Origin: a virus | Strand: one strand, 5' to 3' | IMG/VR virus record: IMGVR_UViG_3300034631_000059 | DNA: 64,000 nt | Part shown: positions 3,617 through 57,572 of the stretch, in pieces | How the letters are laid out: each line of letters opens with the position of its first letter | Numbering within the stretch: position 1 is the first letter of the stretch | Notes under the pieces: model-generated | Told to the model about the DNA's origin: nothing | What the model saw: the letters and a program-made list of their open reading frames with translations, nothing else | Database searches by the model: none | Position numbers and translations under genes: made by a program

Positions 3617-4522
3617 ATGACCAGCCTCCGGAAGCGCCTGATCGACGTCGAGATCACGCTGAACCCGGTGACCGACAACACCACCGGCGCCGTGACCCGC
3701 CCCACCTTCAGTCGCAGCGGCAAGGACACGCTGCTCCTCCAGGGCTACCGCTGCCAGGCGGTGATCCGGAAGGAGGGCTACATCTCGCAGAACCCGCTCT
3801 CCCTGCGGATCTACGGCCTCTCGCTGGACCTGATGAACGAGATCTCGACCCTGGGGCGGCTCCCGCTCGCCGGGCGGAACAACACCATCACAGTGAGCGC
3901 CGGGGACGAGATCGACGGCGTGGCGGTGGTCTACAAGGGCACCATCGCCAAGGCCTGGGCGAACTTCCAGGCCATGCCGGACGTCTTCTTTCAGATTGAG
4001 TCCTACACCGGGCTCTACGCCGCCCTGGCCCCCACGGATGCGACTTCCTTCGTGGGCGCGGTGGACGTGGGGACGGTCATCAGCGGGATCGCGAACCGGA
4101 TGGGCCGGAGCTTCCGGAACCATGGAGTTCAAACCAAACTGACCGACCCGTATTTCCACGGCACCCTCCTCCAGCAGCTCCAGTCCTGCGCGCAAGCTGC
4201 GGACATCGAGTACGAGGACACCGGGGATTCCATCGTCATCTGGCCGAAGAATGGAATCGTTCCCGGTGTGAAGCCCCTCGTCTCGCCCCAAACGGGCATG
4301 ATCGGCTACCCGTCCTTCACCCATAGCGGCATCGCGGTCAGCACACTCTACAACCCGAACATCGGGCGCGGGCAGCTCATCGAGGTGGAGAGCGACCTGA
4401 CCCCGGCCTGCGGGACGTGGCGTGTCTACACGCTGACCCACGTCCTGGAGAGCGACATTCCCAACGGCGAGTGGACCACCTACCTGGAAGCCGCGGAGCC
4501 GCCATATGCCGCGGTCCGATAA
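3617..4522 (+). CDS. Baseplate hub-like phage tail protein
   Basis: LRIYGLS, ITVSAGD, WANFQAMPD, SPQTGMIGYP, LYNPNI and GTWRV motifs resemble myovirus hub proteins; AGGAGG RBS upstream. Confidence 0.7.
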   Translation: MTSLRKRLIDVEITLNPVTDNTTGAVTRPTFSRSGKDTLLLQGYRCQAVIRKEGYISQNPLSLRIYGLSLDLMNEISTLGRLPLAGRNNTITVSAGDEIDGVAVVYKGTIAKAWANFQAMPDVFFQIESYTGLYAALAPTDATSFVGAVDVGTVISGIANRMGRSFRNHGVQTKLTDPYFHGTLLQQLQSCAQAADIEYEDTGDSIVIWPKNGIVPGVKPLVSPQTGMIGYPSFTHSGIAVSTLYNPNIGRGQLIEVESDLTPACGTWRVYTLTHVLESDIPNGEWTTYLEAAEPPYAAVR

Positions 4523-40156: not shown

Positions 40157-40993
40157 ATGGGCGGCGGCAGCAAGAACACGGTCAGTACCGCCCCCGATCC
40201 GGCGGTGGGCATCGCCGCCATGAAAGAGGCCGAGCTTGGCGAGAAGTGGCTCGTGGAGAGCCAGAAGCAGTACGAGATCGCGAACACGCGTCAGGAGAAG
40301 CTCGACGCCATCTCGAACGAGGTGTCGGCCCAGCAGCTCTCGGCCTCGAGGGAGGCGCAGCGTTGGGCGGAGCAGGACCGGACCCGCTCCGTGGGCGTGT
40401 TCCAGCCGCTTCAGGACCAGTTCATTCAGAAGGCCGCCGATTGGGACAGCCCGGCGCGCCAGGACGGGGTGGCGGCCGAGGCCGCCGCGGATGTCCGGCG
40501 CAATGCCGGTATCGCGGACAGCACCCAGGCCCGCCAGATGGCCGCGATGGGGGTCAACCCCACCTCCGGCCGGTATGCTGGTGTGGACCGCGCCGCGAAG
40601 CTGCAGACGGCTCTTGGTGTGGCGAGTGCCGAGAACAACGCCCGCTCCACCGTTCGCAACCAGGCGATGGGGCTCATGGGCGACGCGATCAACCTGGGCT
40701 CCGGCCTGGGCGTGAACCCCGCGACCTCCCTGAGCCTGGGGAGCCAGATCGGCAGCGCGGCGCAGGGCACGCAGCTCACCGCCAACCAGGCGAACACCGC
40801 CAATATCGGCATCCTCAAGAGCGGCTACGATCAGGCGATGCAGGGCTACAACGCCCAGGCTAATATCCTCTCCACCCAGCGCGGCCAGAACATCCAGCTC
40901 GCGGGGCAGCAGGCGCAGCAGCAGGCCAGCAACCAGTCCTCCACGATGGGCGCCATCGGCTCCATCGCGGGCGTGGCGGTGATGGCGTTCTGA
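40157..40993 (+). CDS. Putative DNA ejection (internal virion) protein
   Basis: MGGGSK start, MGVNPTSGRY, Gln/Ala/Gly-rich, hydrophobic C-terminal GAIGSIAGVAVMAF. Confidence 0.65.
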   Translation: MGGGSKNTVSTAPDPAVGIAAMKEAELGEKWLVESQKQYEIANTRQEKLDAISNEVSAQQLSASREAQRWAEQDRTRSVGVFQPLQDQFIQKAADWDSPARQDGVAAEAAADVRRNAGIADSTQARQMAAMGVNPTSGRYAGVDRAAKLQTALGVASAENNARSTVRNQAMGLMGDAINLGSGLGVNPATSLSLGSQIGSAAQGTQLTANQANTANIGILKSGYDQAMQGYNAQANILSTQRGQNIQLAGQQAQQQASNQSSTMGAIGSIAGVAVMAF

Positions 40994-42433: not shown

Positions 42434-43678
42434 ATGGCCTTCGGTGTCGGGGCGGGAGCCTTCCTTCAGGGCCTTCAGGGCGGCATGGGCCTGTACGCCA
42501 AGTTCCAGGACGCCCAGGACCGCGCCACGCAGCGGGCCGCGCTGGGGGCGGCGGCGACGGAGGCAAGGACGGCGCGGGAAGCGGATATTGCTGGCGCGGT
42601 GACGGCCATTCCTGGCGCCGATGGGCAGGCGAGCGGCTTCCGCGTCGGACAGCACACCTTCGCTACCCAGGAAGAGGCGAACAAGATGGCCGAGCGCCAG
42701 GTGGGGTCCTTCATGGACTACTACCGGCGGGTCGGCGCGCCGCGCGTGATGGAGGGCTACCTTCAATCCGGCGACCCCGACAGGGCGGCGGCGTTCGCGA
42801 AGTGGCTGGACACGGAGGGCAGCCGGAGCGGCATGCGATCCTGGGCGCAAGCCATGCGCGCGGCTCAGTGGGGAGATGCGGATGGCTTCGCCCGTCACCT
42901 GACCTCCGCCTACAACAACCAGGACTATTTCGGGGATGGGCAAAGCGTCGGCCGCGCCGAGGTGCTGAGGGACGAGCGGGGGAACGCCACCGGCATGACC
43001 CTCACGATCCGCGACCGTGACGGCCGGGAGCGCACCCAGACCTTCAACGGCATGAATGACGTGTACCGCGCGGGGCTGGGCTTTCTTTCGCCCGACAAGG
43101 CGTTCGAAGTCCTTCAGCGCGAGAGCGAGTCCGCAACCCGGGCCCGCCTCACCCTGGCCCAGGAAGACCGTCGCTTCGGCCGGCAGGTGGCGCTTCAGCG
43201 CGACAACCAGAACTTCCAGGTTGAGCAGGGGAACGTGACGGAGCGGCGCGCCATCGCGCGGGAGGGGCGGCAGGAAGACCGCACCGAGGCCCGCGAAGGC
43301 CGCCAGGAGGTGCGCGAGGTTGCGCGGGAGGGGCGTGCCCAGCAGCGCACGCTGGAAGTCCAGGGCAACCAGTCCATGCTGCGCCAGGCCGAGAGGACAG
43401 CGGAGGACAACTCCCCGCGCCCGGATCGGGTCCGGCGCGACCTGGAAAGCATCCGCAGCAGCCTCGCGAATGGCACGACCATGTACCCCTCCACCGGGTC
43501 GGACGGGAAGCCGACGCGGGTTCTCTTCTCGGCCCTCCCGCCGGAGCGCCAGGCCGAAGAGGCGCGCAGGGTCTATGACGAGCAGATGGCGCAGGCGCGC
43601 CGCACGCGCCAGGAGCGCGGCGTGGGAGCATCGAGCCCCGCCCAGGGTGGCCGCGGAGTGACAGTATATACCCCCTAG
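42434..43678 (+). CDS. Putative DNA ejection (internal virion) protein
   Basis: MAFGVGAGAFLQGLQGG start, helical, RQE(D/V)R repeats; AGGAG RBS; precedes the giant gene. Confidence 0.65.
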   Translation: MAFGVGAGAFLQGLQGGMGLYAKFQDAQDRATQRAALGAAATEARTAREADIAGAVTAIPGADGQASGFRVGQHTFATQEEANKMAERQVGSFMDYYRRVGAPRVMEGYLQSGDPDRAAAFAKWLDTEGSRSGMRSWAQAMRAAQWGDADGFARHLTSAYNNQDYFGDGQSVGRAEVLRDERGNATGMTLTIRDRDGRERTQTFNGMNDVYRAGLGFLSPDKAFEVLQRESESATRARLTLAQEDRRFGRQVALQRDNQNFQVEQGNVTERRAIAREGRQEDRTEAREGRQEVREVAREGRAQQRTLEVQGNQSMLRQAERTAEDNSPRPDRVRRDLESIRSSLANGTTMYPSTGSDGKPTRVLFSALPPERQAEEARRVYDEQMAQARRTRQERGVGASSPAQGGRGVTVYTP

Positions 43679-43742: not shown

Positions 43743-46700
43743 GTGGCGGAACGCAGCGTATTCCAGCAGGGCATCGCGGATCAGGCGGTCGGAGAATACC
43801 TGAGCGCCAACCCCCTGCCCTCCATTGGCGACGACCGCCCGGCCGCGTTCGTTGGTCCGGATCGTGCCCCCGGCACGCGGCTGAACCCTTCAGAGCCCTT
43901 TTCCCGTCCGGCGGAGGAGCGCGGCGGGGCGCCGGGGCGCCTTCGGATCAGCGATGCGCCCGCGCAGCTTCTGCCGCTGTTCGAGGAGGCCAGCGCTCGG
44001 CACGGCGTGCCCATCAACATCATCATGTCCCTGGCCGACCAAGAGAGCGGCTACAACTCCCGCGCCGTGGGCACCCAGACCCAATGGGGCCATGCCAAGG
44101 GCATGATGCAGTACCTCGACAGCACGGCGCGGGGGCTGAACATCAACCCCTACGACCCCGCCCAGGCGATTGACGCGGCGGCCCGTCAGATCCGCGAGCG
44201 CCTGGACCGGGGCTACTCCATGGTGGACGCGGTGCGAGAGCATTTCGCAGGCCCTGACCGCCGCCAGTGGGGCCCCAAGACCGTCCGCTACGGCGAGGAG
44301 GTGCTGGAGCGGGCCGGCGTGCTGGCACAGCGCATCGGGGACCGCTACGCCCCGCGCCCCAACCTGCCTCCCGCCGCATCGGAGCCGCCGGCCCAGACCG
44401 AGGCGCCCGCGGGCGAGGGCGGCATGCTGGGCGATGCCGGGCGCCTGCTGAAGATCGGCGCCAACTCCGCCGCGGCGAATGTCCGCGAGCTGGCGACCCG
44501 CATTCTGCCGCGCGGCGCCGTGGACTTCATCGACAGCATCGACCGCTGGGCGACCGGCAAGAGCAGCGACGAGCTTCTGCGCGCCGACACCAGGGCGATG
44601 GAAGAGGCCATGACGCCCGCCATGCGCGAGGCCATGCGCCGGGACTGGTGGGACAGCGAGCGGGGCACCTTCGGCTCCGCCTGGACCGACCCGCGCGCCT
44701 ATGCGGCTGGCGTGCTGCAATCCCTCCCCGAGATGGCCGTCACCATGGCCCCGGCCATGCGCATGGCGCGCGTGGTCTATGGCGCCCGCGTGGCTGCCGG
44801 CGCCGCACCCGAGGTGGCCGCGCGCGCGGCGGCGCGGGCCGCCGCCCTGACCGGTGCCATCACCGAGGGCGGCATGGGCGGCGCCGCAGCCGCCCGCGAG
44901 GTGCGGGACGCGGTGAACGCGCTTCCCATTGAGACCCTGCGGCAGTCCGATGCCTTCAAGGCCCTGGTCGCGTCCGGGCAGGATGAGGCCACGGCCCGGC
45001 GCGCCCTGGCGGAGGATTCCTCCACCCGCGCGTTCATCACGGCCGGCGTGGCGACCGGCATCTTCGGCGGCATGGGCGACCGGGCGATTGCCAAGCTCAT
45101 CACGGAGGGCGTGGCCGGGGGAATGACCCGGCGGGCGCTGCGCGGCGCGGCGACCAGCGCCGCCGCCGAGGGCCTGTTCGAGGAGCTTCCGCAGAGCGCG
45201 CTTTCCCAGGTGGCGCAGAACGAAGCCATCCGCCGGGCGAACCCGAACCAGTCCCTCACGGAGGGCGTGGCGAACGAGGCGCTGGGCGGGCTGGCCGTGG
45301 GGTCCGTCCAGGGCGCCGGCATGGGCGCCGTTGGTGGTGCTGCGCGGCGCCGCCAGGAAGCGCCTGCAGGCAGCCCCAGCCAGCCCGCACCCTCCCCCGA
45401 CAGCCCGGCGTCTCCCCCAGCCTCTCCAATTCCGGAAGAGGACGCGGCGCCGGGCCGCCAGCCGGAGGCGGTTGCCTCCCCCGCCGCCCCGGCTGGCCCC
45501 CTTCAGCGCGCCATCGCGACCGCGGCGCCCGCCGTGCAGAGCGAGCAGGGCCAGCGCGTGTCCCTGCGCGCGGAGGGCATGGACGACATCGCGGCGGTGG
45601 TGGATCACCACACGCCGGAGGGCGTCATGCTCCGCACCGAGGACGGCGAAAGCCTCCTGGTGACGAACGAGGACGTGGCCTCCGGCGCGGTGGAGATCGT
45701 GCGCGAGGCGACGCCGGCCACCGGCACGCAGCCCGCCCCTGCCGCCCAGCCTGAAGCGCCCCAGCAGGACGCCATCCGCCCGGCCCAGCAGGAGGGCACG
45801 GCCGCCCTGCAAGCGGCCATCGAGCAAGCGCCGCCTCTCCCCAAGAGCGGCGAGGCCCCTGCCCCTGCCCCGGCCCCGAAGGCCTCCGGCGCGCAGCATG
45901 TCTATGACTTCAAGGGAGCCTTCCTGGGCGCGGAGCCCTCCGCCCATCTCCGCGACGGGCTGTGGGCAGCCGTCCAGGCGGGCAGCGACACCCATGCGGG
46001 CATCCGCGAGAACCTGCTGATCGCGGCCAAGACCGCGCGCGAGGGGGGCGGGCTTGAGACCCGGAAGCAGTTCGACGCCTTCCTGAAGGATTGGCACGCC
46101 TCCATCGTCGCGCCGCGCGTGCGGATCGGCACGGCCGAGGGCAACGCCACTGCCATGGAGGTGATCCGGCGTCACGCCGTCGCCCCCAAGGAGCATGCGG
46201 CGCGGGACCGTGAGCAGGCCCGCATGGCCGAGGAGGACGCGCGGCAGGGCGGCGGGCTGGACCTCGCGACGGCCACGGAGTCCGAGCTGCGCGAGCGGCT
46301 GCGGTATCTCGCCCGGCAGGCCCGGCAGCAGGGGTGGACCAAGCCCCTCCTCGCGGCCCGCGCGGAGGTGGAGAAGGCCATCAACCGCCTGGCGACGCAG
46401 CCGGCACAGGAGAAGCAGGGTGCTGGTGATCGAGGGCTTGGGGCTGGTAGCGGCGCAGTGGGTGCTGGGAGCCCGTCCGGCACTGCTGAAGGCCCGGCGG
46501 CTGCGGCTGGTGACGCCCCAGCAGCACGTGGCGATGCTTCGGGCGATGCGGCACGAGGGAAGGCTACCGCCGGAGCTGCACCCCGTGGCGAAGGCGATGT
46601 TTCTGCTTCAGCTCGACGGCCCAAGCCTAAGCCTTCACTGATCGAGGCTGCGCCCGCCGACATGGGCGAGCGGTGGAGTGGGATGAACCACGATGAGCGC

Positions 46701-49700
46701 GCGGACCTCCTGCGCGCCGCGGGTCTCCCCTCCTCCCGGCGGTTCTCATCCTGGGCGGGCCTGAACGACGCGACCCAGAAGAAGCTGGCCGGCGCTGACC
46801 CTGCCGGCACGGTGGCGACGCAGCCCGAGCCCACGCGCGGCAAGAGTGGGTATGAGACGGCCGATCTTCCACGCCTCTACGCCGCCAACATCGACACCCT
46901 GCGGCGACTGCCGGAGGACGCAGGGATTGCGGCCGTCGATCAGGCTGACCAGGCGCTCCGCAACGCCCGGATGTTCTCGGACCTCCTGGCGGAAGAGGGT
47001 GGTCAGCCGGACACCGATGGTGAGCGGGCCCGCACGATGGGCGAGCTGGAGGACCGGCTAAACCGCACCTACAACGCCGCGCAGGACCGCCGTGAAGCGC
47101 AGCCCGGCGAGGAGAAGGTGCCGCGCCGGAAGACGCGGAAGGCCGCTGCCGCTTCCGACGCAGAGCCGAACGGCGGCGCGAAGCTTCAGGCGGCGGCCCG
47201 CGAGGCCTGGGAGCGGTCCAACCTCGCGACGGATCTGGGCGACACGACGCCGATCCGCAACGCCTTCGCGGGGGGCTTCAGCGACGGCGCCGGGGTGCAG
47301 ACCCACATCGCGGAAGGCAAGGGCAAGGCCGCCATCGCCTTCAAGGCGGGCCAGGAAGGCGGGCGGCGCTGGGCTGGGAAGCCGAACCTCTCCCCGACCG
47401 CCGCGAAGCGCGCCAAGGCGCGGCCCGCCGAGGCACCGCCCGCTCAGACCGAGAATCGCATCTTCACGGCCGATGCCGCGGAGAAGGCCCGCGCGCTGCT
47501 GAAGGCCCGGCTGACCCCGAACCATCTCAACTCCGGCGTGGACCCGGAGATCCTGCAGGCGGGCATTACCCTGGCCGGCTACCACATCGAGCGCGGCGCC
47601 CGGACCTTTGCCGCCTATGCCCGCGCGATGGTGGGCGACCTGGGCGACGTGGTTAAGCCTTACCTCAAGAGCTGGTACATGGGGGTGAAGTACGACCCCC
47701 GCGCCGCCGCCTTCGAGGGCATGGACGGGGCGGCTGCGGTGGACGCGGCCGATGTGGATGCCGCCCTGAAGGAGAACGAAGGTGGAGAGGGAGACCGTCT
47801 TGCGGGTGGAGCAGGAGTACCGGCAGCGGAGGGCCGACCCGCGGACGCTGCACAACACGGAGCTGCACCGGCAGATCCTAGCCCGGTGGAAGCAGGACAG
47901 CCCGAAAGCGATGGCGAAGCTGGAAGCGGCGGGGATCGCGTCGAAGCTGGCGTTCGTCCGGCAGGCGAGGATGTGGGACCAGAAGGACGAGCTGGTGGCG
48001 GGCGGGATGCCGGTGACGGACGCCCAGGAGGAGGCCGAGCGGGACAACCTGGTGCTGGACGAGACGGAGGAGACGCCGGAGGCGTAGCGTCCGGCAAGCC
48101 CAGGGCCGACCGAAACGGCGACCTCGCGCGCGCGGCTGGCTTCGTTGAGCGGCCGATGCCCGCCGACATGCCCGAGAAGCGGGTATGGCACCGTGGCGAG
48201 ACGGACAAGATCGCGCAGGACGGTCCTAACACCTTCATCCCCATCGGCGTGGAGCGGCCGGACAACGGCAGCGGTTCCTTCCGCACCATGGCCGCCACCC
48301 TGGCCGCCTTCGCGCGGCGCGACGCGGCGCCGAGCCCGGCCGCCGTCATCGACGCGGTACCGGAGACGCCTCCGGCAGCCCCGAGCCCCGGCAACTACCA
48401 CGTGGCCGATACCATGGCGGGCCGCTCCGGCGGGCCGGTGGCACGTTTCAACCGGAACACCGACGCCATCGAGCTGCTGGCGGCGCTGCGCGAGGCCGGG
48501 CGGCAGGCGACCCGTGAGGAACAGGCGGTCCTCTCCGGCTACACCGGCTGGGGTAGCTTCGGGCAAGAGCTATTCCAGGGCTTCTGGACCAAGCCCATGC
48601 CAAAGGAGGGCTGGGAGGAGCGCGACCGCTGGCTGCGTGACCACCTGGGGCAGGCCGAATGGGAGAGCGCGCAGCGGTCCATCACCAACGCGCACTACAC
48701 CGACCCGCAGACCGTGAAGGCGATGTGGGATGTGGCGCGGCGCCTTGGCTTCCAGGGCGGCCGGGTGTTGGAGCCCAGCATGGGCATCGGCAACTTCTTC
48801 ATGATGATGCCGCAGGACATGGCGGCGCGCTCCCAGCTCTCAGGGATCGAGATGGAGCAGGTGACGGGCAGCATGGCCCAGCACCTTTTCCCCGACGCCA
48901 ACGTCAAGATCATGCCCTACCAGGACAGCCGCACGCCGGATGGCTTCTATGACCTGGTGATCGGCAATTGGCCCTTCGAGAACACGGTGGTTGCCGACCG
49001 CCGATACAACAAGCTTTCGCCCTTCCTCCACGACTTTTTCTTCCTGAAGGCGCTCGACCAGACGCGCCCCGGCGGGCTGGTGATCGGCGTCACCTCCTCC
49101 GGCACCATGGACAAGAAGGGCGTGGGCGTCCGCGCGGCCATGGCAAAGAAGGCCGAGCTGGTGGCGGCTATCCGCCTCCCCTCCGGCGCCTTCCAGGACT
49201 ATGCCGGGACGAAGGTGGTGACGGATATCGTGGTGCTGAAGAAGCGCCCCGAGGAGCTGACCACCCTCCCCCGCGATGCCGAGTGGGTGAACACCGAGGA
49301 GCATCGCGTCGCCAGTGGCGGCAGCTTCGCCCTCAACAGCTACTTCATCCGCAATCCCGGCCAGATCCTGGGGACCCTCGACTTCGGCTCCGGCACGACG
49401 CGCGGGCGGCCGGGCATGATTGTGAATCCGCCGGCCGACCTGGCGGCCGACCTCGCCGCGGCGGTGGGGCGCCTGCCGGAGGGCATCTTCGAGCGCGACC
49501 GGGAGCCGGCGAAGCGGATCAGCTACGTCAGCAACCACACGGCTGACCGGCAGGGCTCCCTCACCATCCAGGATGGCAAGCTCTACGTGGTGCGCGGCGA
49601 GCAGCTCGCGCCGGCCGAGGAGATCACGAAGTACAGCGTCAAGGATGCTGCCGAGACGGCGAGCCGTGACGCGCAGCTTCGGGCCCTGATCGGGATGCGC

Positions 49701-52700
49701 CGTGCTTATGCTGCCCTGATCGACGCGGAGCGGGCTGGCGGTGGCGACAAGGAGCGCGCGGCGCTCCGGGCCTCCTACGACGCCTTCCGAGAGGCCCATG
49801 GCAGCCTGGGGGAGAGCTTCGGTCTTCGCTACCTCGCGAACATCCGCGACCCCTTCTACCCGGCCCTGGCGGCGTTGGAGACGAAGGGCAAGGCGGCGGA
49901 GATCCTTTCCCGCTCCACCATGCGCGGGAAGCCCGCCATGGAGAACCCCGGGATCCAGGACGCCTTCATCCTGGCCCGCAACGAGGCGGTCTCCCCCACC
50001 CTGGCGGATGTGGCCCGCCTGGCGAAGCGCACGCCGGAGGAGGTGAAGGCCGAGCTGATCGCGGCCAATGCCGTCTTCGAGACGCCATCCGGGGACATCA
50101 TCCCGAGCGACATCTACCTGTCCGGCAACGTGCGCCAGAAGCTCCGGGAGGCGGAGGCGGCCGCGGCGGAGGGGCTGGATGGCCTCGCCCGCAACGTGGA
50201 GGCGCTGCGCGCCGTCCAGCCGCCCGACATTCCCTACTTCCAGATCGAGACCCAGCTTGGTGCGACGTGGGTGCCGCCCGCTGTCTATGCCGAGTACGTG
50301 GCCCACATGCTGAACCTGCCGAGCGCGGCCGGCATCGGCGTCACCTTCACCAATGGCCGCTGGACGGTGCGCCTGCCGGAGGGCGCCACCAGCCGCCCCG
50401 AGGCCCTGACCGGCTACGGCACCAGCGAGTACCGCTTCGACCGCCTGGTGAACGCCGCCTTCTCCAACCAGACCGTCACCGTGAAGCGGAAGGACGCGGA
50501 CGGGAAGGAGTTCGTGGACGCCAAGGCCACGGAGGAGGCCAACGCCCGCATTGCCAAGATGCGCGATGATCTGGGCGACTGGCTGTGGTCCGACCCGGAG
50601 CGCCGCGCGGAGCTGGAGCGCGAATACAACGAAGTGCGGAACGCCTATGCGACCCCGCGCTTCGATGGGTCCTTCATGCGCATGGAGGGCATGGCGCTCT
50701 CGGTCGGGCGCGGCCCCTTCGACCTCCGCGCCCACCAGAAGGACGCCATCTGGCGCGCCCTGGTGAACCGCAAGTCCATCAACGCCCACGAGGTGGGCAC
50801 CGGCAAGACCTTCACCATGGGCGGCATTGCCGTGGAGAGCCGGCGCTACGGCATCGCAAAGAAGCCGCTGATCCTGGCTCACAACGCCAATTCGGCCAGC
50901 GTTGCCGCCGAGATCCAGCAGATGTACCCGGCGGCCAAGGTTCTCTACCTGGACAACCTCGCCCCTTCCGTCCTGGAAGTGCGCCTGCGCCAGATTGCGA
51001 ATGATGATTGGGATGCGATCGTGGTGCCGCATTCCGTCATCGACCGCTTTTCCATGCGGGAAGAGACCCTGATGGAGATGGCGCGCGAGGACATCGCCGC
51101 CCTCGAAGAGGAGGCCTATGCCGCCGCGAAGGATGACGGCGAGCGGCTGACCGAGGACATGATGGATGATGAGGAGGCGCTGAAGAAGCTCCGGTCCCCG
51201 ACCGCGAAAGAGCTGGTGAAGGCGCGCAACGCCATCATCTCCACCATCCAGCAGCAGGCGCAGCGTGCCAGCCGGGAGGGCGCGGTGCCCTTCGAAGACC
51301 TGGGCGTGGACATGCTCCTGGTGGACGAGGTTCACGAGTTCAAGAAGCCGTCCATCTCGACCCGGATGCGGATGAAGGGCCTGAACACCCAGACCTCGAA
51401 CCGCTCCATCGCCTTGCAATTCCTCGCCCGCTACGTGCGGAGCCAGAACAACGGCGCCAACATCCACACCTTCACGGGCACGCCGGTCACGAACACCTTG
51501 ACCGAGGTATTCCACCAGATGCGCTACGTGATGGAAGACGAGATGAAGGCTGCCGGGGTGGACACCTGGGACGGCTGGTTCGGCTCCTTCGCGAAGGAGG
51601 TGCAGGACGTGGAGCTGTCCGCGGCGGGCGAGTACGAGCCCGTCACGCGCCTCGCCGGCTTCATCAACGTCCCCGAGCTGCGCCGAATGATCGGCCAGTA
51701 CATGGACGTGGTGTTCGCGGAGGACATGCCGGAGATGAAGCCGCGGCGCACCGCCAGCGGCAAGACGATGGCGAGTCGCGACCTCACGGAGGCGGAGCGC
51801 GCGGAGCTGCTGAACGGCCGCACCGAGGGCGCCATGGACCGCCCTTACCGCAAGGTGGTCAACGTCACCTCCGACCTCACGCCGGAGCAGCGGGGCATCT
51901 TCGCCCGCCTGCAGGGCTACGCGAAGGCGTGGCGCGCGATGGGACCGATGGCCCGGAAGACGGCCATGCTGGAAGGTGCGCCGGAGAGCCCGATCATCAC
52001 CGAGGGCATGGCGAACCGCGCGAGCTTCGACGTGCGCATGCTCGATGGCGAGGACACTGCCGGCCAGGAGGGCAAGGGCGGGGACGATCCGGGCAGCAAG
52101 AGCAGCAACGTGGTGGACCGGGCACTGGCCATCTATGCCAGCCATCCCCTCGCCAACCAGGTGATCTTTGCCGAGCAGGGGTTCAGCACCTCCGCGACCC
52201 GCAGCGCCGGCAAGGACGCCGAGGGTAAGAAGCGCACGAAGACGGTGCCGACCTTCAGCACCATTCGCGACATCGTGGAGCGGCTGGTGCAGGGCGGCAT
52301 TCCGCGCGAGCAGATCGCGGTGGTGGACGGGAAGGTATCGAAGGAGAAGCGCAAGCAGATCGCGGAAGACATGAATACCGGGCGGATCCGCGTGGTGCTG
52401 GGGTCCACCGATACCCTGGGGGTGGGCGTCAACATGCAGCGCAACCTGCGCGCTATGCACCACATGGACGCCCCCTACATGCCCGGCGAGCTGGTGCAGC
52501 GGAACGGGCGCGGCGAGCGCCAGGGCAACCAGTGGAACACAGTGATCGAGTACCGCTACATGACCGACCGCCTTGACGGCCGGCGGTGGCAGATCCTCGC
52601 GACGAAGCAGCGGTTCATCAACGCGTTCCTCCGCTCGAACGCCGATACCCGCGTGATCGAGGGCGATGCTGCGGCCGACGAGGAGAACGACATCCTTCAG

Positions 52701-55700
52701 TCCTTCTCCGAGGCGGCGGGCGATCCCCGCGTGCTGATCCGGGAGAAGCTGAAGCGGAACCTGGAAACGCTTCAGCGGCGGGAGCGGCAGCACGGCCTGG
52801 GCGTGGCCGACGCCAGGAGCAAGGTTCGGGTGCTTCAGGGGCGCCTCGCCGCCCAGGAGCGGGACCTTGCCGAGATCGAGGCGCAGAATACCGTCCAGGA
52901 GGTGAACGCGCTGATCGAGGCGCAGCGCGCGGACGGCTTCCGCATGACGCTGGCGGGGGAAGACTACACGAAGCGCACCGAGGCGGACGGGGCGTTCCAG
53001 AACCTCATGGCGACCGGCGGCGTGAAGCTGGGGGACTCCCGGCGCCTGATCGGCAGCTATGCGGACTTCCCCCTGGATGTGGAATGGAAGGCCTCGCAGC
53101 CGAACCCAACCCTGATCCTGAAGGTTGGGTCCGAGGAGTTCGAGGGGCGCAGCGTGCGCTCCCTGGAAGGGCAGCTCCGCGGCTTCCCGGCGGAGGTGCG
53201 CGGCCGGCAGGCCGATCTGGGGGCCACCCGTTCCAGCCTGGAACGCATGGAGGAGGTGGCCCGGTCTCCATTCCAGCGCGCGAAGGAGCTGGACCTCGCG
53301 CGCGGGCGACTGGCCGCCCTTGAGACGGACATCGCGGAGAACCCCGTCCCGCCGCCCGCCTGGCTCCGCGCTGGCGCCCCGGTGGAGAGCGTGGCCTATC
53401 GCAATGGCCAGGAGTTCGTGGTGTCCGGCCACCGCTGGAACAGCGACGGCTACTTCGTCACGAAGGAGGACGGCCGGGGCACCGCGAATATCCCCTACAT
53501 GGAGGTGACGGACGCCCAGGGCGTGCCGCTCTACGAGGAGCGGCCCTTCGAGGCGCCCGTGGTCCAGCAGCAGGCCCAGCGCCCGGCCGTGCAGGCGAGC
53601 ATCCCGGACGCGCCCTCCCCCGTGGCCACCCTGACCGGCGAAGAGATCGGCGGAGCGACCACCCCCGAGCGCCGGAAGGCGGCCGTGCAGTGGATGAACG
53701 CCAACATCCGGGGCCGTCCGATCTTCAGCGCGGCCTTGGGCGCCAGTGTCGTGGTCAATCGCAAGGGCATGACCAAGACGGTCTCAGGCGGCGTCGGAGA
53801 CCGCATCCTGGACGGGGTGCCCGCCATCGAGGCCATCATCCGCGACGGCCGCCTTGTCGAAACCCTCCCGCCGCGCCCCGAGAAGGGCGACACGGCGGCC
53901 GTTGCTTGGCACCGCCTGGAGGGCACGGTCAGCGTCGCCGGGGAGCCGCGCACCTATCGCGTCCTGATCCGCGAAGAAGCCAACGGCAGCTTCCACTACC
54001 GCCTTGAGGCCGACAGGGGGGAAATGGAGACGCCCCGCACCTTGTCCTCGACTGACCAGCAAGGGAAAGCTGGGGAAGAGGCCGGTATGCGGGGCGCCGT
54101 TCTAAACTTGGAGGAGGCGCCCGGTTCCTTCAAGCCCTCTCCGCAGGGCTGGGGCGAGGTGGACGCTGCCGGCTCGCCGGTCATGTCCGAGAAGACCTTC
54201 GCCCTTGTCACCGCGGCCCTGCGCCAGGTGGCCGGGCCGGAGCTGGTCGTGGAGAGGGGCGCGACCCCCCGGAGCGTGGAAGGCCTGGCCTATGCGCATA
54301 TCGTGCGCTTCGCCATGCATGTGGGCGATGACCGGGCTCCGTGGGTGGCCGTCCACGAGGGGCTGCACGCCCTCCGGAACATGGGCCGGATCACCGCGCG
54401 GGAATGGTCCGTGCTGGTGGACGCCGCGAAGCGGGAGGGCTGGGCGCAGCGGTTCAACATCGAGCGCCGCTACCAGGGGCAGAATGCCGCCACCCAGGAG
54501 GAGGAGGCCATTGCCGAGGCCTTCGCGGCCTGGGCCACCAACCGCTTCGAGGCGAAGGGGCCGGTGGCCCGGATCTTCGCCATGGTCCGCACCTTCCTTA
54601 CCCGACTTCGCAACGCCCTTGCACAGCGCGGCTTCCAGACGGCGGAGGACGTGTTCGGCCGCGCCCTTTCCGGGGAGATGGGCGCGCGGCCCCTGGGATC
54701 GGCAGACCGGGACGGGGCGCGGTCCCAGACGGCCGAGCAGCAGAGCGCCTTCCTCGACAGGTACGCGGCGGACCAGTCCGCCCGCCCGGACATGCGGGCG
54801 AGCCGGGAGCCCATCCAGGCACCGGAGCCGGGCAAGGTGCGCGATTTCCTCCGCTCCATGCTGGACAAGGCCGAGCCCCGGATCCTGGCAGCCATCCCTC
54901 TTCGTCCCCTTATGGAGGAGGTGGGGCACTACCTTCCCAGCGCAAAGAGCTTCCTGAAGACGAAGCAGGCGATGGATGCCATGCGGGCGGAGTGGTTCAA
55001 CACCTCCGCCGAGGTGTCCAATCGCTGGCTGAAGTTCCGCAGCGCCGACAAGGCCGGGAATGCGGCGCTCATGGAGATCATGCACGCCGCGACCCTCGCC
55101 GGGGTGGACCCCAGCAAGCCCTTCGTGGCCAGCAGGAATCCTGCCCTGGACGCCGACCGCCGACCGGAGTGGGACCGCCTGCGGAAGCGGTTCGAGGCGC
55201 TTCCGGAGGAGGGCCGCGCCCTCTTCCAGGTGGTGCGAGACACCTATTCGGAGCTGGCCGACGCGTTCGACGCCGCGCTGCTGAACAGCGTGGACAAGAG
55301 CGTGCGGGTGCGCGAGCTGCAGGCGGAGCGGCAGCACAAGCGCGAGCTGAAGCGGATCGACGCCTCCCCCACCATGACGGAGGAGCAGAAGGAGGCCGCG
55401 CGCGGCGCCGCCGAGCGCACACTGAAGGGGGTGCGGACGCGGGTTCGGTTGAACCGCGGCGCCCGCATGTACCAGCTCCGCGCGCAGTTCGAGAGCAACC
55501 GGGTTCAGGGGCCCTATTTCCCGCTGGCCCGCTTCGGGGACTACTACGTCACGGCGCGCAACACCTCCGGCGAGGTGGTCAGTTTCAGCCGCTTCGAGAA
55601 CAGCGCCGACCAGCGCCGGTTCGCCCGCCAGATGGAGAAGGCCGGGCACCTGGTGGAGATGGACCGCATCGCCAATGACAAGGCGAATGGCCTGCGTGGC

Positions 55701-57572
55701 GCGGTGGACCCCACCTTCGTCGCTGAGGTGGAGAGCATCCTGGAAGGCGCCAACGCCCCGTCCGACCTCATGGACGAAATCTGGCAGCGGTTCCTTCAGC
55801 GGATGCCGGACCTGTCCATCCGGACCAGCAAGATCCACCGCAAGGGCACGGCCGGCTTCACCGCCGACGCCATCCGGGCCTTCGGCTTCCATATGTTCCA
55901 TGGGAGCCACCAGCTCGCGCGTCTGAACTATGCCGCCGATCTGAGCAACAATGTGGACGACATGGCGGAGGAGGCGCGGGACAGCGGCCGGGTAAACACC
56001 GCGACGGCCGTGGTGAACGAGGCGCGCAACCGCCTTGCCTTCATCATGAACCCGACCGGCGGCAGCCTCGCCCAGGGCATCTCCACGGCAGGCTTCCTCT
56101 ACCACCTGTCCGCAAGCCCGGCGGCGGCAGCCATCAACCTCACCCAGACCACGATGGGCGGCATTCCCATCCTGGCCGCCTATGAGGGGACGTGGAGCAA
56201 GGGCTTCACCTCCGCCGCCGCGCAGCTCACCCGCGCGATGAAGGATCTGATGGCCGGCTATGGGAAGATCGGCCAGGCCCCCAACCTCACCGACGATGAG
56301 CGGGACATGGTGAAGACCATGTACGAGATTGGGCTGGCCGACCGGACCCAGACCCACGACCTGGCCGGCGTGGGCGAGGTGGGCGTTCGCTACAACGCCA
56401 CCCGGCAGAAGGTGGTGAACGCCCTGTCCTTCGCCTTCCACCATGCCGAGCGGGTGAACCGCGAGATCACCGCCCTGGCGGCCTACCGCATGGCCCGCAA
56501 CAAGGGGCTGGCGCATGCGGAGGCTATTGACGCGGCGAACAGCCTGACGTGGAAGATCCACTTCGATTATCAGAACACCTCCCGCCCCCGGATCATGCAG
56601 AACGATGCGGCCAAGGTGCTGCTGATGTTCCGCAACTTCACCGTGAACATGCTCTACCGCCTGTTCCGGGACATGAGCGTGGCGGTGCAGGGCGAGACGC
56701 CGGAGCTGCGGAAGGAGGCCCGCATGCAGCTTCTGGGCACCACGATGATGTTTCTGTCCCATGCCGGCATCAAGGGCGTCTGGGGCTTCAGTCTCGCCAT
56801 GATGCTGGCTGGCCTGTTCATGGGCCCGGCGGAGGATGCGGAGGACGAGCTGAAGAAGTGGATGCAGGCCAACCTGGGCGCCGCCATGACGGCGGTGCTG
56901 ATGGACGGCATCCCCGGCTGGGCGACCGGCACGGCCCTGTCCAACCGCATCGGTATGGGGGACCTGTGGTTCCGCAGCCAGGACCGCGACCTGGAAGGCA
57001 AGGAGGAGTGGTGGGCGCTCATTGGCCAGTTCCTGGGGGCCGGCTTCGGCATTTTGGAGAACATGCGCCGCGGCACGCAGATGGCGATGGACGGCAACGT
57101 GGTGCGTGGGATCGAGACCGCCGCGCCGAAGGCGATCCGCGACATCATGAAGGCGCTTCGCTACGCCATCGAGGGTGCGACCACCGCCAAGGGCGATCCC
57201 CTGCTGGAAAGCGTCCCTACCCAGGACGTGGTGAAGCAGCTTCTGGGCTTCACCCCCGCGCGGGTGGCCGAGGTTCAGGAGCGGAACAACGCTGCCCTGA
57301 ACATGCAGAAGGCCATCACTGAGCGCCGCAGCGACATCATCCGTGACTATGCGGCGGCGTTGCGCGAGGACAACCAGGCCGCGCTGGATCGGGCGCAGAA
57401 CAGGCTTGAGGACTTCAACCGCGACTTCCCCGAGAAGGGCATCTCCGGCGCCGACATCATCGGCTCGAACCGGACGTTCCAGCGGAACCGGGGGCGCGCG
57501 GATGGCGGCATCAACCTGGACCCGAAGCTGAACGAAGCCATCCGGGGACGCCTGCCAGCACGAGCATACTGA
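43743..57572 (+). CDS. Giant DarB-like polyvalent virion protein (4609 aa)
   Basis: SLT lysozyme (DQESGYN...GMMQ), N6-MTase-like (VLEPSMGIGNF, IGNWPF), SF2/SNF2 helicase (AHEVGTGKT, VDEVH, QRNGRGERQGN), zincin-like HEGLH, PLARFG motif. Confidence 0.9.
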   Translation: MAERSVFQQGIADQAVGEYLSANPLPSIGDDRPAAFVGPDRAPGTRLNPSEPFSRPAEERGGAPGRLRISDAPAQLLPLFEEASARHGVPINIIMSLADQESGYNSRAVGTQTQWGHAKGMMQYLDSTARGLNINPYDPAQAIDAAARQIRERLDRGYSMVDAVREHFAGPDRRQWGPKTVRYGEEVLERAGVLAQRIGDRYAPRPNLPPAASEPPAQTEAPAGEGGMLGDAGRLLKIGANSAAANVRELATRILPRGAVDFIDSIDRWATGKSSDELLRADTRAMEEAMTPAMREAMRRDWWDSERGTFGSAWTDPRAYAAGVLQSLPEMAVTMAPAMRMARVVYGARVAAGAAPEVAARAAARAAALTGAITEGGMGGAAAAREVRDAVNALPIETLRQSDAFKALVASGQDEATARRALAEDSSTRAFITAGVATGIFGGMGDRAIAKLITEGVAGGMTRRALRGAATSAAAEGLFEELPQSALSQVAQNEAIRRANPNQSLTEGVANEALGGLAVGSVQGAGMGAVGGAARRRQEAPAGSPSQPAPSPDSPASPPASPIPEEDAAPGRQPEAVASPAAPAGPLQRAIATAAPAVQSEQGQRVSLRAEGMDDIAAVVDHHTPEGVMLRTEDGESLLVTNEDVASGAVEIVREATPATGTQPAPAAQPEAPQQDAIRPAQQEGTAALQAAIEQAPPLPKSGEAPAPAPAPKASGAQHVYDFKGAFLGAEPSAHLRDGLWAAVQAGSDTHAGIRENLLIAAKTAREGGGLETRKQFDAFLKDWHASIVAPRVRIGTAEGNATAMEVIRRHAVAPKEHAARDREQARMAEEDARQGGGLDLATATESELRERLRYLARQARQQGWTKPLLAARAEVEKAINRLATQPAQEKQGAGDRGLGAGSGAVGAGSPSGTAEGPAAAAGDAPAARGDASGDAARGKATAGAAPRGEGDVSASARRPKPKPSLIEAAPADMGERWSGMNHDERADLLRAAGLPSSRRFSSWAGLNDATQKKLAGADPAGTVATQPEPTRGKSGYETADLPRLYAANIDTLRRLPEDAGIAAVDQADQALRNARMFSDLLAEEGGQPDTDGERARTMGELEDRLNRTYNAAQDRREAQPGEEKVPRRKTRKAAAASDAEPNGGAKLQAAAREAWERSNLATDLGDTTPIRNAFAGGFSDGAGVQTHIAEGKGKAAIAFKAGQEGGRRWAGKPNLSPTAAKRAKARPAEAPPAQTENRIFTADAAEKARALLKARLTPNHLNSGVDPEILQAGITLAGYHIERGARTFAAYARAMVGDLGDVVKPYLKSWYMGVKYDPRAAAFEGMDGAAAVDAADVDAALKENEGGEGDRLAGGAGVPAAEGRPADAAQHGAAPADPSPVEAGQPESDGEAGSGGDRVEAGVRPAGEDVGPEGRAGGGRDAGDGRPGGGRAGQPGAGRDGGDAGGVASGKPRADRNGDLARAAGFVERPMPADMPEKRVWHRGETDKIAQDGPNTFIPIGVERPDNGSGSFRTMAATLAAFARRDAAPSPAAVIDAVPETPPAAPSPGNYHVADTMAGRSGGPVARFNRNTDAIELLAALREAGRQATREEQAVLSGYTGWGSFGQELFQGFWTKPMPKEGWEERDRWLRDHLGQAEWESAQRSITNAHYTDPQTVKAMWDVARRLGFQGGRVLEPSMGIGNFFMMMPQDMAARSQLSGIEMEQVTGSMAQHLFPDANVKIMPYQDSRTPDGFYDLVIGNWPFENTVVADRRYNKLSPFLHDFFFLKALDQTRPGGLVIGVTSSGTMDKKGVGVRAAMAKKAELVAAIRLPSGAFQDYAGTKVVTDIVVLKKRPEELTTLPRDAEWVNTEEHRVASGGSFALNSYFIRNPGQILGTLDFGSGTTRGRPGMIVNPPADLAADLAAAVGRLPEGIFERDREPAKRISYVSNHTADRQGSLTIQDGKLYVVRGEQLAPAEEITKYSVKDAAETASRDAQLRALIGMRRAYAALIDAERAGGGDKERAALRASYDAFREAHGSLGESFGLRYLANIRDPFYPALAALETKGKAAEILSRSTMRGKPAMENPGIQDAFILARNEAVSPTLADVARLAKRTPEEVKAELIAANAVFETPSGDIIPSDIYLSGNVRQKLREAEAAAAEGLDGLARNVEALRAVQPPDIPYFQIETQLGATWVPPAVYAEYVAHMLNLPSAAGIGVTFTNGRWTVRLPEGATSRPEALTGYGTSEYRFDRLVNAAFSNQTVTVKRKDADGKEFVDAKATEEANARIAKMRDDLGDWLWSDPERRAELEREYNEVRNAYATPRFDGSFMRMEGMALSVGRGPFDLRAHQKDAIWRALVNRKSINAHEVGTGKTFTMGGIAVESRRYGIAKKPLILAHNANSASVAAEIQQMYPAAKVLYLDNLAPSVLEVRLRQIANDDWDAIVVPHSVIDRFSMREETLMEMAREDIAALEEEAYAAAKDDGERLTEDMMDDEEALKKLRSPTAKELVKARNAIISTIQQQAQRASREGAVPFEDLGVDMLLVDEVHEFKKPSISTRMRMKGLNTQTSNRSIALQFLARYVRSQNNGANIHTFTGTPVTNTLTEVFHQMRYVMEDEMKAAGVDTWDGWFGSFAKEVQDVELSAAGEYEPVTRLAGFINVPELRRMIGQYMDVVFAEDMPEMKPRRTASGKTMASRDLTEAERAELLNGRTEGAMDRPYRKVVNVTSDLTPEQRGIFARLQGYAKAWRAMGPMARKTAMLEGAPESPIITEGMANRASFDVRMLDGEDTAGQEGKGGDDPGSKSSNVVDRALAIYASHPLANQVIFAEQGFSTSATRSAGKDAEGKKRTKTVPTFSTIRDIVERLVQGGIPREQIAVVDGKVSKEKRKQIAEDMNTGRIRVVLGSTDTLGVGVNMQRNLRAMHHMDAPYMPGELVQRNGRGERQGNQWNTVIEYRYMTDRLDGRRWQILATKQRFINAFLRSNADTRVIEGDAAADEENDILQSFSEAAGDPRVLIREKLKRNLETLQRRERQHGLGVADARSKVRVLQGRLAAQERDLAEIEAQNTVQEVNALIEAQRADGFRMTLAGEDYTKRTEADGAFQNLMATGGVKLGDSRRLIGSYADFPLDVEWKASQPNPTLILKVGSEEFEGRSVRSLEGQLRGFPAEVRGRQADLGATRSSLERMEEVARSPFQRAKELDLARGRLAALETDIAENPVPPPAWLRAGAPVESVAYRNGQEFVVSGHRWNSDGYFVTKEDGRGTANIPYMEVTDAQGVPLYEERPFEAPVVQQQAQRPAVQASIPDAPSPVATLTGEEIGGATTPERRKAAVQWMNANIRGRPIFSAALGASVVVNRKGMTKTVSGGVGDRILDGVPAIEAIIRDGRLVETLPPRPEKGDTAAVAWHRLEGTVSVAGEPRTYRVLIREEANGSFHYRLEADRGEMETPRTLSSTDQQGKAGEEAGMRGAVLNLEEAPGSFKPSPQGWGEVDAAGSPVMSEKTFALVTAALRQVAGPELVVERGATPRSVEGLAYAHIVRFAMHVGDDRAPWVAVHEGLHALRNMGRITAREWSVLVDAAKREGWAQRFNIERRYQGQNAATQEEEAIAEAFAAWATNRFEAKGPVARIFAMVRTFLTRLRNALAQRGFQTAEDVFGRALSGEMGARPLGSADRDGARSQTAEQQSAFLDRYAADQSARPDMRASREPIQAPEPGKVRDFLRSMLDKAEPRILAAIPLRPLMEEVGHYLPSAKSFLKTKQAMDAMRAEWFNTSAEVSNRWLKFRSADKAGNAALMEIMHAATLAGVDPSKPFVASRNPALDADRRPEWDRLRKRFEALPEEGRALFQVVRDTYSELADAFDAALLNSVDKSVRVRELQAERQHKRELKRIDASPTMTEEQKEAARGAAERTLKGVRTRVRLNRGARMYQLRAQFESNRVQGPYFPLARFGDYYVTARNTSGEVVSFSRFENSADQRRFARQMEKAGHLVEMDRIANDKANGLRGAVDPTFVAEVESILEGANAPSDLMDEIWQRFLQRMPDLSIRTSKIHRKGTAGFTADAIRAFGFHMFHGSHQLARLNYAADLSNNVDDMAEEARDSGRVNTATAVVNEARNRLAFIMNPTGGSLAQGISTAGFLYHLSASPAAAAINLTQTTMGGIPILAAYEGTWSKGFTSAAAQLTRAMKDLMAGYGKIGQAPNLTDDERDMVKTMYEIGLADRTQTHDLAGVGEVGVRYNATRQKVVNALSFAFHHAERVNREITALAAYRMARNKGLAHAEAIDAANSLTWKIHFDYQNTSRPRIMQNDAAKVLLMFRNFTVNMLYRLFRDMSVAVQGETPELRKEARMQLLGTTMMFLSHAGIKGVWGFSLAMMLAGLFMGPAEDAEDELKKWMQANLGAAMTAVLMDGIPGWATGTALSNRIGMGDLWFRSQDRDLEGKEEWWALIGQFLGAGFGILENMRRGTQMAMDGNVVRGIETAAPKAIRDIMKALRYAIEGATTAKGDPLLESVPTQDVVKQLLGFTPARVAEVQERNNAALNMQKAITERRSDIIRDYAAALREDNQAALDRAQNRLEDFNRDFPEKGISGADIIGSNRTFQRNRGRADGGINLDPKLNEAIRGRLPARAY
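46420..46641 (+). CDS. Putative nested overlapping gene (+1 frame, 73 aa)
   Basis: AGGAG 7 nt before GTG; 61 of 73 codons end in G/C; the giant-protein frame here is a Gly/Ala linker with many T/A-ending codons. Confidence 0.5.
   Translation: MLVIEGLGLVAAQWVLGARPALLKARRLRLVTPQQHVAMLRAMRHEGRLPPELHPVAKAMFLLQLDGPSLSLH
47782..48087 (+). CDS. Putative nested overlapping gene (+1 frame, 101 aa)
   Basis: AAGGAG 7 nt before GTG; 98 of 101 codons end in G/C; globular helical protein over a low-complexity linker of the giant protein. Confidence 0.65.
   Translation: MERETVLRVEQEYRQRRADPRTLHNTELHRQILARWKQDSPKAMAKLEAAGIASKLAFVRQARMWDQKDELVAGGMPVTDAQEEAERDNLVLDETEETPEA

Follow-up and report, generated by a model that had tools for sequence, protein, structure and literature searches.

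The question raised by this locus is whether a short open reading frame, lying entirely within a far longer one and out of frame with it, is a second gene or a by-product of codon choice in the Gly/Ala-rich linker that the longer frame encodes. The window, the whole 64,000-nucleotide stretch of DNA that was analysed, is part of a complete provirus record of 81.7 kb. The longer frame (43743..57572, plus strand) encodes a DarB-like large polyvalent protein of 4,609 amino acids, recognized by Pfam and by PHROGs (phrog_10089, E=0). One giant ORF in the virion block carries SLT (residues 79-156), methyltransferase, SF2 helicase, LPD3 and LPD39 domains by Pfam, the makeup of a typical large polyvalent protein (PMC5512222) and one that places it with the DarB-like proteins. 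This host gene is the last large gene of the prophage virion/ejection block, after the tail and internal-virion genes, and its product lacks cysteine. The internal-virion genes at 40157-40993, 42434-43678 and 43743-57572 are all cysteine-free, as expected of ejected proteins.

Position, start site and codon use of ORF A

The nested frame, here called ORF A, occupies 46420..46641 on the plus strand, in +1 relative to the host ORF, and encodes 73 amino acids from a GTG start. A Shine-Dalgarno-like AGGAG (46408..46412, plus strand) precedes the GTG at 46420 with a spacing of 7 nt, and the frame ends, as read directly from the sequence, at TGA 46639-46641. ORF A thus has its own start with a ribosome-binding site and its own stop, entirely within another open frame, as an embedded gene should. 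The host frame over the same span (46419..46641, plus strand; residues 893-966) reads as a Gly/Ala/Ser/Pro linker coextensive with ORF A. Directly upstream, at 46263..46418 on the plus strand, the host frame encodes a small conserved helical module. The earlier note had reported the AGGAG 7 nt before GTG, 73 codons of which 61 end in G or C, the +1 frame, and a host reading made of T-ending Gly/Ala codons. The letters bear out each of these, the 61 as 46 G and 15 C and the last as GGT GCT GGT GAT in the host frame. The other nested frame of the giant gene, at 47782-48087, likewise lies in +1 behind an AGGAG at 7 nt.

The +1 frame around ORF A is open from 46165, that is, for 85 codons upstream of the GTG, and an ORF finder places the start at ATG 46195 to give 148 aa. 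That longer start was rejected because host-frame codon use persists up to 46419. When the change point is sought without regard to start codons, the switch in codon use falls at codon 892, exactly the GTG at 46420, and coding-type codon use then runs from the GTG to the stop. Applied blind across 90 testable nested ORFs, the same procedure finds an ATG or GTG within three codons of the change point in 60, where 31 would be expected.

GC content at host third codon positions is about 0.9 along the 13.8-kb gene and falls below 0.6 only over ORF A and over 47782-48087, so that the codon-position scan proposed at the outset confines the drops to the two nested ORFs. Over ORF A, 42 of 75 host-frame codons end in A or T, whereas the amino acids encoded there predict 6.9 (z=14.2). 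Elsewhere in the giant protein, Gly/Ala-rich stretches show just 4-17 such codons per 74, and no 73-codon window outside the two nested ORFs prefers +1 over the host frame. Because of the A/T-ending excess, and because the other Gly/Ala stretches use normal codons, the possibility that Gly/Ala codon choice alone explains the GC pattern, which would have undone the original suggestion, fails.

The bias also has a direction. G stands at 30 of the 37 four-fold sites of ORF A, against 19.9 expected, and at 3,760 of 5,162 four-fold sites across nested ORFs, against 2,599. G at the nested synonymous sites gives the host a Gly/Ala/Asp reading rather than the Arg/Pro/His-rich reading of an ordinary gene. 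In effect, most of the host linker is ORF A translated in a shifted frame.

Relatives of ORF A in two kinds of giant gene

ORF A by itself is a poor query. It finds no true relative among 5.8 billion proteins, IMG/VR or metagenomes. A search of 1.84 billion representatives returns two repeat-driven artefacts alone, one of them a rubredoxin-like repeat protein, and an IMG/VR match was set aside as chance since it falls in the capsid gene of a picorna-like RNA virus contig (L002). There is no Pfam or PHROG family match, and ESM Atlas features score at most 0.90 and point to unnamed clusters. In tblastn against 50,697 phage records, the single match at E<=10 (E=1, weak alone) is to Klebsiella phage ZX1, where it corresponds to a nested +1 ORF within a PLxRFG giant gene. 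Matches to Vibrio phage 51E28 and to a Klebsiella DNA ligase, from tblastn, were not taken as members, with profile support missing or left aside.

The route to relatives was the host gene: conserved parts of its protein were used to gather 155 giant-gene loci. One of them (L120, a Fluviibacter prophage) carries the same helical module in its host frame and, immediately behind it, a +1 ORF of 70 codons whose ATG follows an AGGAG at 7 nt. Its C-terminal block and stop are in register with those of ORF A, and it is taken as a positional ortholog. The helical module also occurs in 11 other phages with no adjacent nested ORF. An obligate partnership between the two was rejected, as either is found without the other.

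The first family profiles, of five and 43 sequences, missed ORF A (E=3-14); L120 and ZX1 served as the bridges that join it to a wider family. That family includes nested ORFs at L006, L021, L034, L035, L059, L067, L078 and L080 and 35 database proteins. With ORF A left out of its construction, a profile recovers it at E=1.1e-5 (27.8 bits) among 23,618 six-frame ORFs. The top score of 5,000 shuffles against the leave-one-out profile was 10.4 bits, and none of the 5,000 reached 27.8. Members are three-helix proteins of 58-73 residues. The core, residues ~20-73, consists of a helix, the motif vispqe, a second helix and the motif lP..L.pva..lfL, frequently with a His-stop end.

At all 30 loci with the family the copy lies in +1 of a long open ORF, in DNA of 42-71% GC, and no free-standing or in-frame copy occurs among them. 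Proteins called as stand-alone genes on short contigs proved to be nested wherever DNA was read. Homologs of ORF A thus keep the +1 frame, as the earlier note had asked of them. SD-like motifs also precede the nested starts of ZX1, BA3 and VvAW1, and a codon switch at a start codon with canonical SD spacing is seen in ORF A, L120 and L035-type members. In most full-length hosts the nested copy falls at host residue ~480-1040, upstream of the cargo enzymes; in L167 it is nearer the start. Distribution is patchy, at about 10 of the 155 giant-gene loci.

Seven cultured phages carry a member: ZX1, VvAW1, FGH, BA3, S6, Pastis and Fifi011. Four of these are Klebsiella phage ZX1, Vibrio phages VvAW1 and FGH, and Thalassomonas phage BA3. 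The sole annotated copy is BA3_0004 (GenBank EU124666, ABV74289.1), nested in +1 of the giant gene BA3_0002 and called from an upstream start as a 110-aa hypothetical protein. The records of ZX1, VvAW1, FGH, S6, Pastis and Fifi011 have no annotation of the family copy.

Erwinia phages S6, Pastis and Fifi011 represent a second type of host. The ZX1 peptide matches inside the virion RNA polymerase (vRNAP) genes of these N4-like phages, in +1 and with the same terminal motif, and a profile built without the three scores them at E=1e-10, 4e-7 and 3e-3, respectively. The Pastis copy covers residues ~918-988, aligned with residues 907-1006 of N4, a low-complexity linker between the membrane-anchoring domain and the polymerase (PMC13434306). 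N4 gp50 and the host of ORF A are both giant cysteine-free ejected proteins, and the N4 protein has a linker of about 100 residues between its NTD and enzyme; in the Waedenswilvirus group (S6, Pastis, Fifi011) that region carries a member of the ORF A family. The linker of coliphage N4 itself (L182, residues 907-1006) is closed in +1 by many stops, and the final family profile finds no match in the other Schitoviridae looked at, such as Rhizobium phage RHph_X2_28B (L183). By these sequence comparisons, one nested family occupies two kinds of giant injected-protein gene, DarB-like and N4-type vRNAP.

The Erwinia copies have weak SD-like motifs, which makes their expression less certain, and show no codon-bias signal. 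Internal SD sequences are able to stimulate frameshifting. That property and the weak SD-like motifs, together with the stretch open in +1 upstream of the GTG in the window, fit a reading in which programmed frameshifting leads into the +1 frame and yields a shorter protein, the N-terminal module with the helical domain as alternative C-terminus. We regard this as improbable: a frameshift needs no start codon, yet the codon switch coincides with one at canonical SD spacing, and no common slippery sequence was found at the 5' ends on inspection by eye. The idea that an in-frame restart of the host is translationally coupled to termination of the nested frame was also discarded, the homologs having no conserved nearby Met.

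Selection, predicted structure and other nested ORFs

Selection tests were done on homologs of ORF A, at about 25-40% identity to it. Contigs aligned over ORF A itself yielded no variants, and one from a public run, which may be the source of the window, is identical across the region. L120 and three close variants differ by 29 changes. Of these, 18 lie at third positions of nested codons; 17 leave the nested peptide unaltered (neutral expectation 27%, p=3e-4), and 5 leave the host protein unaltered. The upstream flank of the same sequences shows the opposite, with 28 of 51 changes at host third positions (p=0.003). Two further subfamilies agree (p=0.016 and 0.023), and in one of these host-frame synonymy is below neutral (p=8e-4). 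Between S6 and Fifi011, differences at host positions 1/2/3 number 3/1/25 in the flank and 14/11/8 in the overlap (p=9e-7). No family locus has its host frame interrupted, so the giant chain is kept as well. On this comparative evidence the nested frame is under purifying selection in the relatives, with the host frame intact.

These results bear most directly on the view that no second protein is made, ORF A being a shadow of a conserved or biased host linker or the relic of a once-separate gene. Ordinary genes of this phage, read in -1, have no stop in 43% of 75-codon windows, so a captured gene could persist easily, and between the window and L120 the host-frame identity, 11/37, is close to the 12/37 of the nested frame. 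Against it, close relatives differ by changes that alter the host protein and spare the nested one; start, SD and stop persist across 42-71% GC; and the family is predicted to fold with high model confidence. This view is very unlikely. We conclude that ORF A is, with high probability on the codon and comparative evidence, a genuine gene that encodes a protein out of frame within a giant ejection-protein gene. The proposal of extra genes in the linkers of this giant protein is likewise supported, by the codon test and the frame-keeping homologs.

The structure model of ORF A has three helices, at residues 7-27, 33-46 and 51-65, with a mediocre pLDDT of 62; the AlphaFold model of family member P0011 has the same three-helix topology at pLDDT 92. 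For so small a helical bundle, fold searches of the PDB give a best Z of 4.3 (VIA-align) and a best E=3.3 (Foldseek), and no solved structure stands out as a known fold. The top fold match in BFVD is A8HNW3, a protein of 110 aa at 33% identity and, going by its length, probably BA3_0004. Conserved positions of the family are hydrophobic or proline, and it has no invariant catalytic residue.

ORF A had been described as a hydrophobic/basic helical peptide. The helices are predicted for the family too, but the hydrophobic/basic character does not hold across it. Only in ORF A are the N-terminal ~18 residues hydrophobic; its best 19-residue hydropathy is 1.37, with basic residues after that stretch, while most members are near 0. 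Net charge in the family ranges from -10 to +5. There is no lipobox Cys or lipoprotein signal, as an o-spanin would have, and no conserved transmembrane helix; ORF A contains no Cys at all. A membrane-active toxin or lysis protein, comparable to the overprinted phiX174 E or MS2 L, would account for the hydrophobic N-terminus with its basic residues and for the position in a late gene. Since neither that N-terminus nor the charge is conserved, the N-terminus being missing in all homologs and several members being acidic, and since the family is modelled as a compact soluble three-helix domain, we consider such a role unlikely, about as unlikely as a frameshift.

The second nested gene, ORF B (47782..48087, plus strand; 101 aa, +1, with AGGAG at 47770-47774), belongs to a different family. 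Similarity ties it to TnpV-like nested ORFs; it clusters with 35 nested ORFs that lie just before the methylase-helicase, in a cluster of 36 members. ORF A was rejected as TnpV-like (PF14198), having no Pfam match and falling outside the cluster of ORF B; its family profile gives partial, weak matches alone to the TnpV-like ORFs (E>=0.009). Pfam TnpV is matched by 5 of 48 sampled nested peptides. Eight of the 48 match phrog_938, a giant-protein profile (at positions ~2084-2165 in two that were checked), and some database protein may carry the ORF B-type module in frame.

More broadly, a codon scan of the 155 loci identifies 176 distinct nested ORFs. Of these, 174 lie in +1, and an SD-like motif accompanies 144. 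At least one occurs in 103 of the 107 hosts rich in GC, the scan being weak for AT-rich genes. They fall into several families, the largest of which includes ORF B and touches Pfam TnpV. Avoidance of stop codons alone is insufficient to produce the 174:2 preference for +1 (43% vs 17% open windows). As a class, nested ORFs are depleted in Cys (0.16% vs 0.90%, ratio 0.18), Phe (ratio 0.37) and Gly (0.43), whereas Gln and Glu are abundant; the Cys depletion, partly shared with Phe, may reflect composition or a dual-coding constraint.

Several loci merit separate mention. In Burkholderia phage Bcep22, gp75, a DarB-like gene, has two unannotated +1 ORFs with AGGAGG-class SD motifs (L084:6580-6744 and L084:8359-8682), the first of which resembles the ORF A family by eye but has no score in the family profile. 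Operon-like pairs of nested +1 ORFs, arranged stop to start, occur at L014:6505-7053, L038:3881-4432, L072:3604-3906, L076:1762-2037 and L091:4440-4796. A 121-codon +1 ORF in another giant gene (L049:4195-4560) resembles, by eye, an HNH-type endonuclease-like insert. In Sinorhizobium phage PBC5 (L083:6651-7308) the giant gene is annotated as orf33 plus orf23, and the break falls right behind the anchor domain, at the site of a nested gene in relatives; a frameshift or a sequencing error is possible.

Possible roles and relation to known systems

Embedded phage genes are a known kind. In phiX174, E is nested in D and B is nested in A. In the Bcep22-like phage JC1 the spanins are embedded, with Rz1 inside Rz (PMC9144972). 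ORF A resembles these in being a complete shifted-frame gene inside another, with its own ribosome-binding site on the same mRNA. It differs in that the host is an ejection protein of 2,500-4,600 residues and the overlap is confined to a disordered tether, in that the product is a predicted soluble helical protein with no lipoprotein or conserved membrane signal, and in that one family occurs in two kinds of giant host. What is new is a distinct three-helix family with its own slot in both polyvalent and vRNAP genes. The survey of polyvalent proteins by Iyer et al. (2017) makes no mention of overlapping or nested genes (PMC5512222). In the literature searched, which excluded the bulk of subscription papers and the original reports on BA3 and Bcep22, we met no account of genes nested in polyvalent or vRNAP genes and no paper discussing the function or nesting of BA3_0004. 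The bare GenBank call BA3_0004 thus appears to be the only earlier description of the ORF A family.

If the signals at its start act as they appear to, ribosomes would initiate internally at the AGGAG/GTG on the late mRNA, and both the small and the giant protein would be made from it. The host may need no more than a long flexible tether at this point, from its N-terminal wall/membrane module to the cargo enzymes, and would tolerate nested sequence there. It would fix only the absence of stops and a preference for Gly, Ala and Asp, exerted through the synonymous sites of the nested gene.

As a tentative best guess, the product may be a late-made helper of the giant ejection protein, by analogy with the service of Ulx and DdrB to DarB in phage P1. 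It would be a non-enzymatic helper of the giant protein or of its ejection complex, and could keep the giant protein packageable, load it into the head, or travel with it. Such a role is favoured because the family is seen only inside giant ejection-protein genes, because it is common to hosts with different cargo (methylase-helicase and RNA polymerase), because it lacks catalytic signs, because the Pastis copy sits in the stretch aligned with the N4 NTD-RNAP linker, and because nested ORFs are poor in cysteine, as ejected proteins are. Head loading of P1 DarB requires small partners, Ulx and DdrB, and the Dar helpers comprise Ulx, DdrA, DdrB and Hdf (PMC9024508), while JC1-type phages have no homologs of the P1 helper proteins (PMC9144972); this too favours a helper supplied in another way. 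The P1 helpers are separate annotated genes, unlike ORF A, and the parallel proposed here is one of role. Precedent for an out-of-frame protein that acts on the product of its own host gene, a further point in favour, comes from GndA, a microprotein encoded inside E. coli gnd (bioRxiv 10.64898/2026.10.22.760973). GndA lies in a cellular stress gene and forms an amphipathic membrane helix, and serves here as a precedent only. Because the family is patchy and the N4 linker is closed in +1, the function would not be universally needed.

ORF A could instead be real but independent of its host protein, an accessory cassette such as a counter-defence gene or host-control effector residing in a tolerant linker and made late or co-injected. 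The patchy distribution and varying flanking domains suit this reading, as do the many unrelated nested families within the same giant genes; the spread over polyvalent and vRNAP hosts fits horizontal movement, and polyvalent proteins are themselves conflict cargo (PMC5512222). An independent gene should, however, also turn up elsewhere in genomes, and none of the 30 loci has it free-standing or in frame; nor does any PDB, Pfam or PHROG link lead to a known effector. We hold this reading possible but doubtful. Functions other than those considered here share the remaining probability.

Extending the helper role, giant ejected proteins of different types might each encode their own packaging or ejection helper within the tether. 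The ORF A family would be one such helper, moving as a unit of tether plus helper, and this might explain how Bcep22-like podophages load DarB-like proteins without the P1 accessory proteins. We offer this as a tentative generalization.

Standard annotation and virion proteomics databases miss nested genes of this kind. The well-studied phages Bcep22, Erwinia S6, Vibrio VvAW1 and Klebsiella ZX1 have candidate unannotated genes inside their largest virion gene, and mutations made in supposedly neutral linkers may strike nested genes. The region of ORF A is a clean natural case of two-frame coding, a folded domain against a spacer, in which the trade-off at synonymous sites is measurable. It is still debated how a protein of 3,000-4,600 residues is kept fit for packaging and then passes along a short tail (PMC13434306; bioRxiv 10.64898/2026.04.10.717836). 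The small conserved protein that the tether region encodes offers a testable candidate for a part in this, one that can be knocked out with no change to the host protein.
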